NCBI GenBank assembly: GCA_963816145.1 | Contig: CAWFJP010000005.1 | Span: 160,001 to 224,000, forward strand | Source of the DNA: an uncultured delta proteobacterium | GTDB taxonomy: Bacteria; Desulfobacterota; Binatia; UBA9968 | DNA length: 64,000 nucleotides | Reading direction: 5' to 3' | Part shown: in pieces, positions 40,051 through 63,011 of the stretch | Position numbering within the stretch: the stretch's first letter is position 1 | Layout: every line of letters starts with the position of its first letter | Program-made: the position numbers and the translations under genes | The notes under the pieces: model-generated | The model's input: the letters and a program-made list of their open reading frames with translations, nothing else | Databases searched by the model: none | What the model was told of the DNA's origin: nothing

Positions 40051-40072
40051 CATCCCAGCTCAACAGGGATTG

Positions 40073-40120
40073 CCCCCACCTCTGTCCTCCCCCGCTGGCG
40101 GGGGAGGATGAAGGAGGGGG
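40073..40120. repeat. REP-like palindrome (CCTCCCCCGC..GCGGGGGAGG)
   Basis: Nested inverted repeat CCCCCACCTC..TCCTCCCCCGCTGGCGGGGGAGGA..AGGAGGGGG. Confidence 0.75.
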
Positions 40121-40163
40121 AAGCCCTCTCGACAATAATAACTACAATATTGGAGATTCCCCA

Positions 40164-40886
40164 ATGGCAGAGCAAATCAAGGTAAAAGTTGGATTCGTCA
40201 GCGGTGGGTCGAGTAACATGCCGCATTACCATAGCTTCACACCCATGGTGCCGAAGGATGTCGAGCTCGACTTCCAGGGCCTGAATCTTTACGGCAAGTC
40301 ACTTTATGAAATCTCGGACAAGAAGGACGTCATCCTCAGCCGCGTGAAGGGCTATATCGCCGAGCGTAAATGGGATGGTCTGATTGTCACCGCCGCGCCG
40401 ACTGAAGTGTTGAATCCTGGACTGTTCGACGATCTCAAAGCGGCGGTGTCGATACCGTTCACGACCGCGCTCAACGCTTGTGTCGCGGCGCTACGAACTT
40501 ACTCCGCGCCGAAGGTGCTCTTGCTCACGCCTTTCGATGCCAAGTTGAATGACCTGATCGTCGCTCATCTGGCCAAAGCCGGCGTCACCGCGATCTCGCC
40601 GAATTCCTTCGCCGAACTGGCCGTGCCCAAACGCATGACGCCCGAGGAGGTCTTCGATCTGACGAAGAAAAACCTTGCCGTCGCAGGTAAAGTCGACGCG
40701 ATCTATTTTCAAGGCGCCGTGCTCGATCCGATCAAATGTTTGGAGAGAATAGAGGCCGAACTCAACGCCACCGTGATCGCCAGCAACCCGGCGATGCTTT
40801 GGTACGTGCTTTCCAAGCTTGGGTATAAGTATCCGACCAGCGGTTACGGCAGGCTGCTGCGCGAGTGGCCGGCGCTCGGAAATTAG
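40164..40886 (+). CDS. Maleate isomerase / arylmalonate decarboxylase (Asp/Glu racemase superfamily)-like protein
   Basis: PFTT, LLTPF, IEAELNATVIASNPAMLW, GYGRLL motifs; canonical catalytic Cys residues not evident. Confidence 0.78.
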   Translation: MAEQIKVKVGFVSGGSSNMPHYHSFTPMVPKDVELDFQGLNLYGKSLYEISDKKDVILSRVKGYIAERKWDGLIVTAAPTEVLNPGLFDDLKAAVSIPFTTALNACVAALRTYSAPKVLLLTPFDAKLNDLIVAHLAKAGVTAISPNSFAELAVPKRMTPEEVFDLTKKNLAVAGKVDAIYFQGAVLDPIKCLERIEAELNATVIASNPAMLWYVLSKLGYKYPTSGYGRLLREWPALGN

Positions 40887-40929
40887 CGTTCAAGGTTCCA
40901 GGTTCAAAAGTTCAAGATTTGGACCGCCG

Positions 40930-41223
40930 GCAGTCGCCCTTCCGCGCGCTATGACCAAAGCGATTCACATCCATAAAACCGAGAAGGAATGGACCAGGCG
41001 CGTTATCGACAAATACCTGCGTACCAACGATGGGGAAAAACTTGAACGTACCTACAATAGCTTCCGCCCGTTGTTCTCCGAAGTGCCTCGCCCGACTGCA
41101 GACGGTGTAAAGACGTTACTCGACGATCTTGCTGGAAAACCCCCTAAGGCAGCCGAGGCGATTCCGAAATAGTTTGTCGATGGGAGTTTTGTCGATGAGA
41201 TGGAGCGTCGGGGTTTATCATGA
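40930..41223 (+). pseudogene. Remnant 3' end of an NMT1-type SBP gene
   Basis: AMTKAIH...KYLRTND...PRPTADGVKTLL...K*FVDGSFVDEMER; no N-terminal half and an internal TAG at 41170. Confidence 0.7.
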
Positions 41224-41349
41224 AGCTCTACGAGAGATAGCCCTGGCCTCGCCGATTGGTGAAGCCGAACTACCGTTGACCACACGATTAAAGTTCGTAT
41301 TTTTATCAATACGACTCCAAATCCGGACTTGTCTCGCGAGAGTAAACCG

Positions 41350-44260
41350 AAGACCATTGTAAGATAGTACTAGCTAAGTGAGGGGGGCTTTAAATGGCAG
41401 ACCTTCAAAAACAGGCTAGCGTGTTATCCTTACAACGAGAGGGCCAGTCGGTTACCGCGCAACTTTTCGAAGCGTATTTGTTGTGTCCCACCAAGTGTTT
41501 TCTTCAGTCTGTCGGTGAGGTGCCGCAAGAGAACGAGTTCGCGAGCTGGAAGGAATCTCGGCGTGTGACGTATCGTTTCGAAGGCACTCAAAAGTTATTA
41601 TCCGGACACCCTTCCTGGTTGGTTGACGAATCTCCTGAACTCGGTCGTTGGAGAAACGTGTCTTGGGATTTTGCCATCAACCCTGTTGCGCGTGCCGAGG
41701 GCTTAGAGGCGCGACTTCACGTCGTACAGCGCATCTCCGCGAGAAGGACGAAAAACCTAGCCTCTTTCGTACCATTTCGTTTTGTCCCCGACATCAAACT
41801 TTCGCGCTCCGACAAACTGATTGCTGCATTCGATGCGTTCGCGCTCTCGACGGCGTTGGGAGTGAAGATCCCTGTTACGAGAGTCATTCACGGGGATAAG
41901 GCATCCGTTTATAAAGCAAATGTCAAATCTCTGTCACGTGCAGTCCATAAAACCATTGGCAAAGTCACTGCCTTGTTAGTTGCCAACGCTCCACCAGATC
42001 TAATCCTAAACCGCCATTGCCCCGAATGTGTGTTCCAGAATCGATGCCGAAAAATAGCGGTTGAGAAAGACGATCTCAGCCTATTAGCCAATCTCCCTAA
42101 CAAGGAACGATTCCGGCTGAATAACAAAGGAATTTTTGCTGTTAACCAACTCTCCTATACGTTTCGCCCGCGTCGTCGCATCAAACGGATCGCGGCTAGA
42201 CCCGAAAAGTATCATCACTCATTGAAAGCCCTCGCGATTCGAGAACGAAAAATACACGTCGTGGGTTCACCAACGCTACGAATCGTGGGAACACCGATCT
42301 TTTTCGATGTCGAGGGGCTGCCGGATCGAGATTTCTATTACTTGATCGGTATGCGTCTGGAGGGCGATGCAAGTCCAACGCGCCATGCTCTGTGGGCCGA
42401 CGCCGCGGTCGATGAAGAGCACATATGGAACGCCTTCCTCACAGTATTGTCGAGCATCGAGAACCCTGTCTTGATTCATTTTGGCAATTTCGAAAATAGA
42501 TTTCTGAAGCGGATGTGCCAACGATACGGTAGCCTGCCGCGAAGATTCGCCAGCGGCTAAGGCGATCGTGTCTTCGATTAATCTATTGTCTGTGATTTTC
42601 GCCCAGGTTTACTTCCCTACATATTCTAATGGGCTTAAGGAAATTGCCCGATTTCTGGGTTTTGAATGGTCAGACCCCTCGGTTTCTGGCCTTCAATCCA
42701 TCGCTTTGCGATACCGATGGGAAGAATTCGGAGATCCCACGGTTCGCGAGAAGCTGATCACCTACAATGCTGACGATTGTGACGCGTTGAGCCTTGTCGG
42801 TCATAATCTCAGGCGACTCTTAGAGCCTGATATCGACGCAGACAAAACCTCAAGTTCTGTTTTCGAGATCGTTCATGCTGAAGCGCTGGCAAAAAACCTG
42901 AACTCTAAATGGCGTACCTTCAAGAGTCCTCTAGCCGATTTGGAGCATGTTAACCGTGCCGCTCATTGGAGCTACCAAAGGGACCGTGTTTTCGTTAGGT
43001 CGGGGGTGGACAAGCGGCTGTCGATACGACGATTCAGGCGACGCGGGTCTGTCAAGAAAGCGGAGACTGCTGGTTTTTCTCAAGGCTAGGATATCCTGCC
43101 CGGACTGTGGCAAAAAGGGACGGCGAAAATGTCGGCTCGTCTCGACGGACTGTGCAAGATTTGGTTTTCGGGCGGGCAAGCGTGAAAGGCAGACGTGTGA
43201 ACTACATGTTTCAGACCTACCGGTGTCGGAGTTGCGGACACGAGTATAACGTCCACGAATGGTATTGCGGTCGTGGCGCGGTGAAATGGGGTTGGAATCT
43301 GGTTGCCTACTTCGTCTACCACGTTGTAGGCCTCCGCGTTCCACAACTAACGGTGCAACGCGGTCTTCACGGCCTGTTCGGGGTCGATGTGGCTCCGGAG
43401 TTCTTTAAACGACATTAAAATCAGAGCGTCTGATTATTATTTGGTCAACCAAACGAAAGATCTTGCGCCGGATCGTCCAAGGAGAATTGATTCATGTCGA
43501 CGAGACCAGGGCTAACATAAAAGGTCATCTGGCTTACGTGTGGGTTCTCACAAACCTGCGGGAGGTGGTCTACATTCTAGCTGAGAGTCGCGAGGGGGAG
43601 TTTGTTCAGACGTTATTGCAAGATTTTAAAGGTGTTCTTGTGTCGGATTTCTATGCAGCTTACGACGGAATTGCTTGCCCCCAACAAAAATGTCTTATTC
43701 ACCTCATGCGCGATCTGAACGACGATATTTTGAATAATCCGTTTGATGAAGAAATGAAATCGATCGCCGTCGGTTTTGCTCGCTTGTTGAAACTTATCGT
43801 GGAATACTATCGATCGGCACGGACTGAAGACATATTTCTTGCGGAAACATTTGGTCGACGTACATCGCTTCTACCGATTTCTTGACTCGTCGGAAGTCAA
43901 AAGCGAAGTCGCATCCAAATGTAAACAGCGCTTTGAGAAAAACCGCGACAAACTGTTTACGTTCTTACGTTATGACGGGGTCCCATGGAACAATAACAAC
44001 GCCGAACACGCGATCAAAGCTTTTGCGAGGCTTCGGGACGTTATTGGCGGATCGTCTACAAAGAAGGGTGTAGACGAATATCTCACTCTCTTAAGCGTGG
44101 CTCAGACGTGCGAATATCAAGGGATCGATTTTCTGAGCTTTCTGCGATCTGAAGAGAAGGATGTCGACACCTACTGGGCAGCTTTCGTAAGCGTCCAAGG
44201 CGTCGCTGATTTTGTGTCGGCAGCTATCGGAACTCGCTAATGGCATCGAGACTTTAGCGG
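41350..44260 (+). mobile_element. IS66-related element carrying a TM0106 nuclease fusion (ends not defined)
   Basis: IS66 DDE domain and lower GC than the flanks; no TIR pair, target duplication or tnpA/tnpB seen; boundaries are approximate. Confidence 0.5.
41394..44240 (+). pseudogene. TM0106-family (Cas4/RecB-like + RNase_H_2) nuclease fused to an IS66 (TnpC) transposase; at least 6 frameshifts
   Basis: YLLCPTKC, NRHCPECVFQNRC, FFDVEG, YFPTYSNGLKEIA, YNADDC, then CPDC/CRSC zinc ribbon, HVDET, LVSDFY, QQKCLIHLMRD, NNNNAEHAIK across ORFs 41394, 42568, 42947, 43107, 43463 and 43839. Confidence 0.8.
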
Positions 44261-44304
44261 AAAGGTGACATGCTTTCTCCGTTAAGAACGGTTGGGGTTG
44301 CTAA

Positions 44305-44542
44305 ATGCCGACGATTCTGCGAGTTAGGTCCTTTTCGTTTCTTTTTCTACGCTGGGGATCGAGAGGAACCGCGGCATGTTCACGTCGAGCGTGACGATCG
44401 GATCGCGAAGTTTTGGCTTGATCCGATTCGGCTTCAAAGCAGCGGCGGTTTTTCGCGACTGGAAATTGCGCGCATCGAAAGATTGGTGAGCAATCACCGA
44501 GAAGAGCTTATGGAGGCTTGGGATGAATACTTCGGCGGTTGA
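44305..44542 (+). CDS. DUF4160 protein (putative toxin); +1 frameshift near 44325
   Basis: MPTILRV + GPFRFFFYAGDREEPRHVHVERDD..AKFWL...WDEYFG. Confidence 0.82.
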
Positions 44543-44873
44543 AATCGCGATTCCGTACGTTGAAGACGTGACCGTGTCTCAAGACACGCTTACCGTGGAA
44601 CTTGGCGATGGCCGAACTCTTTCGGTTCCTCTGGCGTGGTTTCCTCGCTTGGCGCATGCGTCATCGGCCGAGCGTAAGCGTTGGCGTCTGATCGGCAGAG
44701 GCGTCGGAATTCATTGGGAGGATATCGACGAGGATATCAGCGTCGAAGGGCTATTAGCAGGGAAGGCGTCAGGGGAAAGCCAGGCGTCATTCAGCAAATG
44801 GCTTGCGAAGCGTTCGTCGCGGCCAACATCACGCTCAACAAAGACACGCTCAAAGGTGAGTCGGTCGGGTTAG
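44523..44873 (+). CDS. DUF2442 protein (putative antitoxin partner of DUF4160)
   Basis: LTVEL.DGRTLSVPLAWFPRL..AS..ER..W...G.GIHWEDIDEDISVEGLL; overlaps the upstream gene. Confidence 0.9.
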   Translation: MNTSAVEIAIPYVEDVTVSQDTLTVELGDGRTLSVPLAWFPRLAHASSAERKRWRLIGRGVGIHWEDIDEDISVEGLLAGKASGESQASFSKWLAKRSSRPTSRSTKTRSKVSRSG

Positions 44874-44925
44874 CGCAGTGGAGCGGGAACTAGGATCACG
44901 CTTGCATGCGGGTGGTCCGCAAATC

Positions 44926-45747
44926 CTACCGCAAAGTCTTTTTCAACCACTCCGTCACAATCTTCGAAACTTTATCCTCTGCGCCGACATAGAAGTGGTC
45001 GCAGTCGGGGATGATTGCGACTTCGCAGTGGCCGGGGCAATTTTTCGCGAACTCTTCGGCGGGGTAGTTTTCTTTGGGCTCCTGGTCGCCGCGGATGAAG
45101 AGGACGGGGCAGGTGATTTTCTTGGCGTTCTCCAGCAGGTCGGGGGCGTTGGTCAGGCGGTCGAGGAATGTTCTCGCCGAGATCACCCACCACCAGGCGG
45201 GGATGAGCATGAGTTGTCTGGGCTTGCCGGCGGCGACCAGGGCTTCGGCTTCTTTTCTCTGCTTTTCGACATCGCCGGCGAGGGAGTAGTTGCGCGCGGC
45301 GCGCTGGTGGACCATGCGGTTGCCGCCGGTGTGGGCTGATAGCAAAATCAAGGCTTTGGTTTCCGGGTGATGCGCGACATGTTCGGCGGCGAGAACGCCG
45401 CCGTTGCTGTGGCCGATCACGATGGGATTGGGAAATCCTCTACCGGCTAAATATTTCGCCACCAGATTGTTGTCTTCGACGCCTTCAGCGACGGTTTGAT
45501 AGGCGCCGCCGACGCATTCACGGCTGTCGTAGGTGCTCACCGAGTCGTGGCCGCGGCGGTTGAAGGCCAAGTATTCAAAACCTAATCCAGTGATGTGCGG
45601 CGCCAGAAAGCGCGCGGCGCAGACGTAGAAATTCATCTGATTGCCGTGGCAATACATCGCCGCGCCTTTGCTCGGTCCGTCGGGTGTGTAGTAGGCCCCG
45701 TCAAGCGGATGCGTTGGCGTGGCAATGCTGATAAGTTCGGTGCGCAT
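44926..45747 (-). CDS. Alpha/beta fold hydrolase
   Basis: HGN, NRRGHD, GHSNGG nucleophile elbow, PVLFIRGD, DHFY. Confidence 0.9.
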   Translation of the reverse strand: MRTELISIATPTHPLDGAYYTPDGPSKGAAMYCHGNQMNFYVCAARFLAPHITGLGFEYLAFNRRGHDSVSTYDSRECVGGAYQTVAEGVEDNNLVAKYLAGRGFPNPIVIGHSNGGVLAAEHVAHHPETKALILLSAHTGGNRMVHQRAARNYSLAGDVEKQRKEAEALVAAGKPRQLMLIPAWWWVISARTFLDRLTNAPDLLENAKKITCPVLFIRGDQEPKENYPAEEFAKNCPGHCEVAIIPDCDHFYVGAEDKVSKIVTEWLKKTLR

Positions 45748-61514: not shown

Positions 61515-63011
61515 CTAGCTTGCCGATGTCGACCATTTTGCCAGCGCTTGATCGACATGCCACATCGCCAGGCAGTCGTCTTCGTTGTAGGTCAACGCGC
61601 GGTCGATGGCGAATAGATCGGTGTTGTCGAGATAATCCCAGTAGCAGACCATCGACTGGTAGGCGCCGATGTCTTTTTGCCGCCAGTGAAAGCCCAGGGC
61701 CGGGGCGACGGATTTGATCGAGAAAGTCGGCACCGGCAGATAGACGGCGGTTTGGATCGCCTCTTTCAGGTCGACGCACTTGGTGACGATCTGTTCGATC
61801 GACCCGGACAGCGTCGGCCAGCGGCGCGCGACGCGGCGCATTTGCTGAATCTCGAAGTCGGTCCAGTGGTACAGGCAAACGTCGCGCGGATCACCGACAT
61901 AATCGAAGAACTCGGTGAAGATGCGCGCTTCGTCTTCGGCGCCGCGGGCGAGAAACTTGACGAACTGATCGCGGGCGCCGTCGTAACAGCCGATCAGGTA
62001 GGTGTGCGGCGGCTCGCTCGGATGGACCGAGTCGGAAGTTTCAAAATCGAAATAGAGCAAGCGCTTGCTTCGCGGTATTGTCAGCTGCTGCCCAGGCTTC
62101 AAAACCGGTCCGCTGACTTTATACGCTTGGCTCACAAGAAAGGCGATCGCACCAAAGTGTTCGCCGAGTATCTCGATCAGCTCTTCCTGGCGCAAGTTCC
62201 AAACTTGATCGACTCTGTGAATGCCGGCGCGGCGCAGCTTTTCCCGTTCGCGCTTGGTGATACCTGCCAATAGGACCAAGTCGCGTTGGTCAAGAGCCCG
62301 TTGGTTGGCGTAAATTCGCCAAGGCGAACTCGCCGCATTGGGCGGCCGGTTGGTCTCGGGCACGACGTTGCCATCGCGCAACTCTCTCCAAAACTCGCGT
62401 GCCGCGGCGATTTCTTGCGCCTTATCGGCAAAGCTAACAGTTTCTTCGCTATCTTTCAGGACGATCGTGAACTGATTGGGCACGAAACCTTGGAGCTTGC
62501 CGATATTCTCATTGTAGAAAGCGCCTTGCAGCGCGTGGGAGGTTTGCAGCGACTGCGATCTTTTGATCTCGATGACGCGATAGTGGAAAGGCCCGAGATC
62601 CGATGGTGCTGAATCGTCGCGCACAAGCAAATCGCCTTTGCCGTAGGTCGCTTGCGCTAAATCCCAAAGCTGCGGTTGATAGATTGCCGGCGCACCTGCG
62701 AGCAGGGTATCGCAGGTGTTTTTTAGCGCCGCGAAGCCGAAGCCGGGTTTGATTTCCACGCCGTTGGGGTAGTGGCTCTTGACCCAGCGCTGCTCGTATT
62801 CGACGCCCTGCTGCATGCGCAGTTTTTCATAGCGGGTGGTTTCATCGACGGCGGCATTCTTGGGCGCGTGATGCTGACACCAGAGCCAGAACGGGTCCTT
62901 GAGCAGGTAGTAGCTGAGCGAAGGGCGAAACAAATTGTGACGGTTGAACTTTTGCCCGGCTATGGCGCGTTGGAGCAGTGTTTCGAGGTTGACTTTTGCA
63001 ACTGCTGACAT
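61515..63011 (-). CDS. TM0106 family RecB-like nuclease with C-terminal RNase_H_2 (DEDD) domain
   Basis: IYQP.L, GKGDLL, VIEIK, LQGAFY; GI....E.LR.AGI; YFDFET, VDL, FSIKSVAP..GF.W, YNEDDC. Confidence 0.88.
   Translation of the reverse strand: MSAVAKVNLETLLQRAIAGQKFNRHNLFRPSLSYYLLKDPFWLWCQHHAPKNAAVDETTRYEKLRMQQGVEYEQRWVKSHYPNGVEIKPGFGFAALKNTCDTLLAGAPAIYQPQLWDLAQATYGKGDLLVRDDSAPSDLGPFHYRVIEIKRSQSLQTSHALQGAFYNENIGKLQGFVPNQFTIVLKDSEETVSFADKAQEIAAAREFWRELRDGNVVPETNRPPNAASSPWRIYANQRALDQRDLVLLAGITKREREKLRRAGIHRVDQVWNLRQEELIEILGEHFGAIAFLVSQAYKVSGPVLKPGQQLTIPRSKRLLYFDFETSDSVHPSEPPHTYLIGCYDGARDQFVKFLARGAEDEARIFTEFFDYVGDPRDVCLYHWTDFEIQQMRRVARRWPTLSGSIEQIVTKCVDLKEAIQTAVYLPVPTFSIKSVAPALGFHWRQKDIGAYQSMVCYWDYLDNTDLFAIDRALTYNEDDCLAMWHVDQALAKWSTSAS

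Follow-up and report, generated by a model that had tools for sequence, protein, structure and literature searches.

Does a gene in which an IS66-type transposase is preceded by a Cas4/RecB-like domain and an exonuclease encode a protein family in its own right, and if so, is that family mobile? The question is raised by a locus on the 64,000 nt stretch of DNA analysed here (positions 160,001 to 224,000 of the forward strand of contig CAWFJP010000005.1, assembly GCA_963816145.1, from an uncultured delta proteobacterium of the Desulfobacterota), which we refer to as the window and whose own numbering is used throughout. An earlier reading of the letters alone, here called the original prediction, had proposed that these parts form one frame of ~950 amino acids (aa) broken by at least six 1 nt shifts, and that they represent either a distinct class of transposon with built-in end processing or a domesticated protein. 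Comparison with homologues indicates that the fusion is real, ancient and widespread, and what is new here is a family of IS66-type transposases with a retained DDE site, a retained DEDDy exonuclease and a non-nuclease Cas4-like module, unstudied so far. The copy in the window is almost certainly a dead member of this exonuclease–IS66 fusion family; as assembled it is non-functional and has no functional importance of its own.

The region 41394–44209 on the + strand is one gene whose frame is broken by 1 nt indels, and it appears as five adjoining + strand open reading frames (ORFs; 41394–42560, 42568–43089, 43107–43418, 43463–43885 and 43839–44240). In order, the pieces match TIGR03491 TM0106 (92.6 and 63.6 bits, cut-off 97.45 bits) and PF13482 RNase_H_2 (22.3 and 51.6 bits), and the later pieces match the IS66 families PF03050 (65.3 and 30.4 bits, gathering cut-off 23.1 bits) and NF033517 (81.6 and 56.6 bits, equivalog cut-off 180 bits), so that TIGR03491, PF13482 and PF03050, the three families for which a search had been proposed, were all obtained. 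A protein-to-DNA alignment tolerant of frameshifts, made with P0001 (936 aa), the intact homologue nearest to the gene, spans 41394–44206 at ~80% identity and bridges the pieces by exactly six +1 shifts and a seventh shift of opposite sign, with no in-frame stop in the bridged frame; this agrees with the single long frame of the original prediction and adds the opposite shift to it. In the frame of the relatives the ancestral stop is at 44207–44209. By this alignment and the family matches, the whole broken gene encoded a fusion of ~936 aa with four domains, described in order below.

First comes the Cas4/RecB-like Fe-S domain (41451..42068, aa ~20–225, delimited by Foldseek and alignment), in which C31 (41484), C209 (42018), C212 (42027) and C218 (42045) are kept and the nuclease motifs are replaced. 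It is followed by the RNase_H_2/DEDDy 3'-5' exonuclease (42276..42804, aa ~295–470, assigned by PF13482, conservation and fold, interrupted at 42540) with D305 (42306), E307 (42312), E367 (42492), Y457 (42763) and D461 (42775), and by a zinc ribbon of the form CxxC...CxxC (43097..43235, aa 568–613, assigned by cysteine conservation, interrupted at 43145). The IS66-type DDE core (43305..44069, aa ~637–890, assigned by PF03050, interrupted at 43392, 43447 and 43805) carries D701 (43499), D750 (43646), C765/H768 (43691/43700) and E869 (44004). All catalytic and metal-binding codons are intact in the window, namely those of the four Fe-S cysteines, the five exonuclease residues, the four zinc-ribbon cysteines and D701/D750/E869, and every motif quoted earlier was found there: LCPTKC and HCPECVFQNRC (the 1+3 cysteine pattern), FFDVEG, YNADDC, the CPDC...CRSC zinc ribbon, HVDET, SDFY and NNAEH.

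The evidence that the fusion is more than a local accident comes from its intact homologues. With the first 388 aa as query among longer proteins, 2153 proteins were found at E<=0.001 among 8000 scored candidates. PF03050 and PF13482 occur together in 119 of the 120 best matches, all 120 of which are 708–1053 aa long, and relatives are encoded in at least 527 of 601 pattern-matched stretches of species genomes and at least 599 of 602 pattern-matched stretches of metagenome contigs. An intact fusion ORF of at least 800 aa was present at 60 of the 80 genome loci kept, the remainder being cut by a contig end or broken-looking and not inspected singly; intact homologues are typically single ORFs of ~900–1000 aa. 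Members from two further genomes of the same genus share the architecture at just ~35% identity, and the segment between the modules is itself conserved, with A523, W525, Y527 and Q528 invariant in 31 sequences. As both modules lie in a single ORF in the homologues and the linker is conserved, the fusion is held to be old and selected rather than a chance junction, and the central claim of the original prediction, that the fusion is real, stands.

Scores against family models agree with this picture. The N-terminal 470 aa match the whole of the TIGR03491 model above its cut-off (182.5 bits in P0001 and 175.3 bits in P0083). PF03050 scores 99–127 bits in intact homologues (100.6 bits in P0001), and PF13482 scores 70.9–86.9 bits in the five intact members scanned (80.5 bits in P0001). 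For NF033517 the scores lie close to the cut-off of 180 bits (180.7 bits in P0083 and 178.7 bits in P0001) since these proteins lack the N-terminal third of canonical TnpC, and no other IS66-specific Pfam family matched intact members at E<=0.01. Annotation in databases is inconsistent, the same proteins being called either 'IS66 family transposase' or 'TM0106 family RecB-like nuclease'.

To compare the active sites, 62 fusion proteins from nine or more phyla were aligned with six stand-alone TM0106 genes. The stand-alone proteins retain the PD-(D/E)xK signature (GDLL, IEIK, QxxFY). In motif III of the fusion family the E is replaced by R in 56 of 62 members and the K by V or I in 49 of 62, and the E..K pair is kept in none of the 62; in QxxxY the Q has become L or M in 53 of 62 and the Y has become D, also in 53 of 62. 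The comparison upholds the suspected loss of PD-(D/E)xK and QxxxY from the N-terminus. The residues that replace the lost nuclease motifs are themselves conserved across the family and the Fe-S cysteines (1+3 pattern) are present in 60–61 of 62 proteins, and it follows that the Cas4-like domain has been retained for something other than cleavage. Most likely it only holds DNA ends.

The remaining sites are kept. The DEDDy exonuclease residues are conserved almost without exception (D 62/62, E 62/62, E 61/62, Y 62/62, D 62/62), and the exonuclease is predicted to be intact and active across the family. The four zinc-ribbon cysteines are found in 61–62 of 62 members, with weak matches to transposase zinc-ribbon families, and both the DDE triad (D, D, E) and C..H..R occur in 62 of 62, the latter lying between the second D and the E in what we take to be an IS66 transposase motif. 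The pattern of a Cas4-like domain with a lost nuclease, a kept DEDD and a kept DDE was upheld in all 62 members.

Structural comparison supports the assignment of the first two domains. The AlphaFold model has a mean pLDDT of 65 and is good at ~20–200 and ~290–470 and weaker in the DDE part. For the first domain Foldseek places Cas4 chains at the top, the best of them from a Cas4-Cas1-Cas2 complex (8d3l_I, E 2e-6, TMt 0.64–0.69; also 4r5q and 4ic1), followed by Dna2, Exo5 and MGME1, and for the second it returns the exonuclease domains of family-B polymerases (including Pol II) and RNase T. Sequence scores against Cas4 models are under their cut-offs (TIGR00372, 23.5 against 65; PF01930, 16.6 against 22.7), and no solved relative was found in the PDB by sequence profile.

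How does this family relate to systems that are already known? The nearest in layout is the TM0106 family (TIGR03491; COG2251; PF13482 cluster F.13), which has the same order of Cas4-like domain, helical linker and DEDD exonuclease, with identical exonuclease residues. Whereas the stand-alone TM0106 proteins of the genus keep D, ExK and QxxxY and have no cysteine cluster, the fusion has lost ExK and QxxxY and has four cysteines and a C-terminal IS66 DDE domain. Majorek et al. (2014), in the available part of that paper, predict the PF13482/COG2251 cluster to be 3'-5' exonucleases and give DUF83 nuclease-like and AAA partners, with no transposase partner (PMC3985635).

The window's genome has a stand-alone TM0106 gene of its own at window 61536–62309 on the - strand, with an ORF of 498 aa at L007:1480-2976 (TIGR03491, 197 bits). 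It keeps PD-(D/E)xK, ExK, QxxxY and DEDD and lacks the cysteine cluster, the opposite of the N-terminal module of the fusion, and matches of the same type occur in 22 of the other 60 relatives searched.

Among IS66 elements, canonical IS66/IS679 (tnpA-tnpB-tnpC) shares the catalytic domain family of its TnpC with the fusion, but the latter has no tnpA or tnpB beside any of 38 loci or in the window's genome. Canonical IS66 needs three ORFs (Han et al. 2001, as summarised in the part of PMC3469429 that was available). The single-ORF ISBst12 group is closer, with the same IS66-type DDE core, D, D, E and C..H..R, in a single gene without tnpA/tnpB. According to the available text of PMC12898284, elements of this group transpose, and ISDge4 has a transposase of 449 aa, terminal inverted repeats (TIRs) of ~14 nt starting GTGAC/GTAAC and an 8 bp direct repeat. 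By comparison the fusion is ~930 aa long with a 550 aa N-terminal nuclease-like and exonuclease module, and no TIR, target site duplication (TSD) or multi-copy genome was found for it.

A functional likeness is to the CRISPR adaptation complexes Cas4-Cas1-Cas2 and DEDDh-Cas1/Cas2, which likewise couple a Cas4-fold Fe-S end-capping domain or a DEDD exonuclease to an enzyme for joining 3'-OH ends to target DNA. The likeness stops at function, the integrase of the fusion being an RNase-H-fold DDE enzyme and not Cas1, and its Cas4-like domain being catalytically dead. Unlike CRISPR Cas4, the fusion has no cas genes, cas1 and cas2 families included, among 150 neighbouring ORFs of 38 loci, although CRISPR arrays were not searched for. 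The accessible portion of the Cas4 phylogenomics paper (PMC5704561) does not mention transposases.

The literature searched yielded no description of a fusion of IS66 with a RecB-like, Cas4 or exonuclease module, the mentions of TM0106 concerning other topics. Table 1 of Challacombe and Kuske (2012) lists four 'transposase IS66' genes with both pfam03050 and COG2251 in Ca. Solibacter usitatus Ellin6076 and treats them as ordinary IS66 (PMC3469429), so the fusion had already been tabulated but, in the part of that paper available, not analysed. The earlier statement that such fusions are annotated but uncharacterised is in line with this table and with the lack of a functional description in the literature searched. 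The family is found in at least several hundred species and is counted as ordinary IS66 in genome surveys, to judge from the same source (PMC3469429). IS66-family transposition is poorly understood, and here is a branch in which an end-binding domain and an exonuclease would replace the usual N-terminus and helpers and in which no inverted repeats are seen. If the family is mobile it would change the view of how transposon ends are recognised, and would also be the DDE-transposase counterpart of the CRISPR 'trimmer-integrase'; if it has been recruited it would represent a widespread domestication of a bacterial transposase, possibly in defence or repair.

The distribution of the fusion is patchy. 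It is carried by 2 of 300 other genomes of the phylum (completeness at least 90%), by 7/151, 8/201 and 7/151 genomes in overlapping samples of an acidobacterial family, one copy each, and by 3 of 72,556 plasmids; it is rare, at about 1–5% of sampled genomes. On a tree of 60 proteins, whose 55 labelled tips represent 9 phyla, the phylum label changes 24 times (8 being the fewest possible), and the first 10 of 200 shuffles of the labels gave 28–34 changes. Homology of the gene alone, at 89–93% DNA identity, occurs across orders. Four loci (L052, L064, L069 and L192, the named ones from Betaproteobacteria and Acidiferrobacterales) are 89–91% identical in DNA, but only over a stretch that begins ~45 nt upstream of the ATG and extends no more than ~190 nt past the stop, and in an acidobacterial group L038, L040 and L183/L211, which represent three contexts, break off on the left at exactly the same point. 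Gene-sized homology and a recurrent left breakpoint point to a discrete moving unit.

Two further arrangements were seen among these loci. In L038 (4004-7033 and 7488 onward), and likewise in L211, two fusion-family genes stand in tandem ~450 nt apart; they are divergent, just 62 nt aligning as DNA, and the pair occurs in two upstream contexts. At L075:7525-9162 a stand-alone RNase_H_2 (TM0106-like) gene of 545 aa lies ~750 nt downstream of the fusion gene on the same strand.

The setting of the window copy fits arrival from elsewhere. The GC content of the fusion block is ~0.49 against ~0.60 in the flanks, and the gene is single-copy and the only PF03050 match, hence the only IS66-type DDE, in a genome that is 99.5% complete. 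The genes at window 40164–40886 and 44926–45747 are just 35–150 bp apart in the genus relatives G008, G013, G017, G018 and G027, from which it follows that the window has ~4 kb of extra DNA at a hotspot. The interval 40886–44926 is hypervariable in the genus, with unrelated inserts of 0.9–2.6 kb in G007, G019 and G021. The relative G007 has homologues of window 40944–41230 and of 44300 onward, including a DUF4160/DUF2442 gene pair, without the fusion gene; its homology ends at ~41237 and resumes at 44300, and a contig from another sample, X1, already covers 41304. These boundaries place the inserted unit within 41237–44300, at ~3.0 kb, with its left end somewhere in 41237–41304 and its right end in 44210–44300. 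The 5' flank accordingly occupies 41237..41393 and the 3' flank 44210..44300, both on the + strand. No clean empty site with a TSD could be read at the locus among the genus relatives, because the hotspot differs in every one of them. Low GC, a single copy and absence from this site in genus relatives make a foreign origin by horizontal arrival the most likely one for the window copy.

Taken together, the window locus is probably, though well short of certainly, a decayed and horizontally acquired copy of a ~3 kb single-gene unit belonging to a large uncharacterised family. In this reading the unit, made up of its own leader, the gene and a tail of up to ~190 nt, would have inserted between two conserved genes, at an intergenic hotspot that is hypervariable, and later gained seven 1 nt indels, after which no protein would be made. 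The intact unit would move by its own DDE domain, and whether the family is self-mobile we regard as evenly balanced. As to how, the N-terminal module might bind the DNA end, the exonuclease would trim the 3' strand back to the boundary protected by protein and so make a 3'-OH, and the DDE site would join the trimmed 3'-OH to target DNA, following a 'trimmer-integrase' logic like that of Cas4 or DEDDh with Cas1-Cas2. This end-trimming mechanism, drawn by analogy, we consider doubtful. Its most specific form, a DDE transposon that does not need TIRs, in which the dead Cas4-like domain and the zinc ribbon would clamp the ends, the DEDDy exonuclease would trim to the footprint and the IS66 DDE domain would integrate, is more doubtful again. 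Were ends set by a molecular ruler as in CRISPR spacer capture, and not by sequence-specific cleavage, one would expect units the size of the gene, sharp at one boundary and ragged at the other, with neither TIR nor TSD.

A body of evidence weighs against mobility, and it begins with the ends. No TIR was found in the window and none specific to the family around 58 intact loci (blastn-short and an exhaustive 24-mer comparison), nor were any found inside the ORF ends or at mapped boundaries; TIRs of IS66 type in particular (14–30 nt, starting GTAA/GTRAC) were not seen at the window gene or at mapped boundaries. Mapped boundaries showed no convincing TSD, with right ends not mapped to the base, and the right boundaries are ragged, from 0 to +190 nt by context. 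No genome searched, three family-level searches included, has more than one recent copy, one genome having two very divergent tandem paralogues; nor do short metagenome contigs tend to stop where the gene does, which gives no sign of a collapsed repeat. Some members look vertically inherited: L065 and L091 share flanks and are syntenic, and in L042 (3995-8936) and L050 (3974-8918), from two acidobacterial genomes that are syntenic across the junction at 74% DNA identity, 5 nt separate the end of the fusion gene from a recG-like helicase gene. These two genes may form an operon, and the arrangement may hint that the host has recruited the fusion in that lineage. Finally, the 150 neighbouring ORFs at 38 loci often belong to toxin-antitoxin, restriction-modification, Wadjet (JetD), Abi (AbiEii) and integrase genes, a setting that suits a defence-island gene as much as a mobile one.

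The proposals of the original prediction fare unevenly in this light. Of its distinct transposon class with built-in end processing, or else a domesticated protein, the fusion holds (119/120 and 60/80), whereas for the transposon class no ends, TSD or multi-copy genome were found among the loci and genomes searched, and some members are syntenic. Aligning the flanks of homologues, suggested as a way to find ends and TSDs, gave no TIR, no convincing TSD and ragged right ends, and the suggested check of copy number gave one copy in every genome searched. Its observation that neither tnpA/tnpB nor TIRs are visible was correct, as there are no inverted repeats at the gene and no match to PF05717 (tnpB) anywhere in the window's genome.

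Several candidate signals at the ends were considered and rejected. No inverted repeat was present at 55 of the 58 intact loci, and the three exceptions (L079, L081 and L083) are host repeats like repetitive extragenic palindromes (REPs). The 26–31 nt repeats of L079 and L081 were rejected as TIRs since they are genome-wide (31 and 138 copies). Their 24-mer, GTAGCAGCCGACGTAAGGAGGCTC, has 31 and 138 copies, with up to 3 mismatches, in the verrucomicrobial-type genomes G061 and G062, often as inverted pairs 50–70 nt apart; it is a repeat of the REP type or of the kind known as bacterial interspersed mosaic elements, and mimics TIRs around the fusion gene. The 15-mer of L083, CGTAGGGTGCGTTAG, was likewise rejected, its 5 copies all being local and beside a Y1_Tnp gene that resembles REP-associated tyrosine transposases. 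At this locus (L083:3402-9981) the fusion gene and the Y1_Tnp gene lie between nuoA and nuoB/C/D, interrupting the normally contiguous NADH dehydrogenase operon. A conserved 5' hairpin before the ATG was discarded (mean z -0.05 against -0.06 in neighbouring genes), its 3' arm being paired in 29/46 cases against 82/156 in neighbouring genes. A left-end motif ATTCC occurs in just 6 of 58 loci, and the enrichment of upstream k-mers reflects start-codon context only.

The alternative that survives best is that the family is a recruited transposase, a single-gene DNA-processing or anti-invader factor spread passively in flexible or defence islands; its DDE domain would serve as a nuclease or an integrase for DNA that is foreign or damaged, which the exonuclease would degrade. 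We hold this to be possible but unlikely. The lack of TIRs, TSDs and multi-copy genomes, the strong conservation of all catalytic sites across nine or more phyla, neighbourhoods rich in defence and integrase genes, the conserved 5 nt junction with recG in two loci and a sparse prevalence typical of defence genes all speak for it. Against it, PADLOC families gave no match beyond weak Cas4, and none of the neighbours is conserved across the 38 loci; a left breakpoint that recurs in three unrelated contexts, together with homology confined to the gene across orders, indicates a discrete moving unit, and Table 1 of PMC3469429 lists four genes with the pfam03050 and COG2251 pair in a single complete genome. 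The picture of the family suits a selfish unit of low copy number and without TIRs as well as a defence-island gene.

Returning to the decayed, horizontally acquired copy, are its frameshifts real? Contigs X1 to X3, 95–99% identical to the window, come from other samples and serve as relatives and not as the source, the best public run sharing 0.23 of the sampled words. By the alignment to P0001 there is 1 extra base on the + strand at each of 42540, 43066, 43145, 43392, 43447 and 43805, and five of these six extra bases are missing from the near-identical relatives. At the first, a loose end of contig X3 at 42538 continues one base shorter (in our own reading of its letters); X1 and X2 omit one base at 43065, and X1 omits one at 43145, one at 43394 and one at 43446; the sixth rests on the P0001 alignment, no relative contig covering the site. 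The seventh shift, 1 base missing near the C-terminus (44174..44175, a 1 nt deletion near 44174), is matched by an extra T behind 44174 in X2. The breaks are thus peculiar to the window's sequence, and we think it likely that they are real rather than assembly errors, the window copy then probably being a real pseudogene.

It may instead be that the gene is intact in the organism and that the seven 1 nt indels are consensus errors at a heterogeneous or low-coverage locus, a tentative reading that we place on the unlikely side. Several points count in its favour and against genuine decay. The window differs from its near relatives by nine indels, each of exactly 1 nt; seven are extra bases in the window, and six fall within 43033–43446 (~410 nt), a clustered pattern of single extra bases that is commoner in consensus errors than in natural decay. 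There are no stops or larger lesions, every catalytic codon is intact, and the source run is absent from the public runs compared. Coding differences from X1 are not clearly neutral, with 16 synonymous and 17 not among the 33 listed (from 40 listed of 160 differences). On the other side, none of the six +1 sites is a homopolymer, and the rest of the window is cleanly coding (86% in ORFs of at least 100 aa, median 318 aa, one ORF of 1598 aa). The 16 matches to the PF01609 transposase family in the assembly are all open, including the multi-copy ones. Elsewhere ~1/10 of full-length family loci, not inspected singly, are also without a long ORF, from which decay appears to be common in the family.

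Reading of the shifts by programmed frameshifting or other recoding, to which the same sign of the six main shifts and the stop-free bridged frame would lend themselves, has next to no probability, given that at five of the six sites the extra base is missing from near-identical relatives, that intact homologues have no need of it and that the six contexts share no slippery motif. Equally negligible is a chance insertion of an IS66 element beside or into a TM0106 nuclease gene at the window locus, for which the separate stand-alone TM0106 gene in the same genome could be cited: intact homologues rule it out, since one ORF covers both parts and the linker is conserved, IS66 TIRs are absent at or near the junction, where they had been named as what would betray such an event, and the N-terminal module is unlike the stand-alone type.

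Some further features of the window lie near the unit. Within the 5' flank there is a promoter-like site (TTGACC-16-TATTTT, 41276-41303, + strand), which is not above chance, 3 such matches being found against 2.5 expected, and a G-rich stretch stands directly 5' of the ATG of the fusion gene. No Rfam match at E<=1 was found in 40800–45000. Directly downstream of the fusion gene, at 44270–44873 on the + strand, is the pair of DUF4160 (65 bits) and DUF2442 (81 bits) genes, which also matches the DhiT toxin weakly. G007 and G019 have this pair but not the fusion gene, and it looks like a small cassette of its own within the hotspot; in front of it G007 carries a duplicated 235 bp stretch from the 3' end of the adjacent hydrolase gene (window 44932–45166). 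Upstream, at window ~40070–40121, there is a GC-rich palindrome of 50 nt that is predicted to fold into a hairpin of -41 kcal/mol. This repeated, REP-like element gives 47 blastn-short hit lines in its own genome, 32 of them over the same core, and is found at 88–96% identity in many genomes of the genus.

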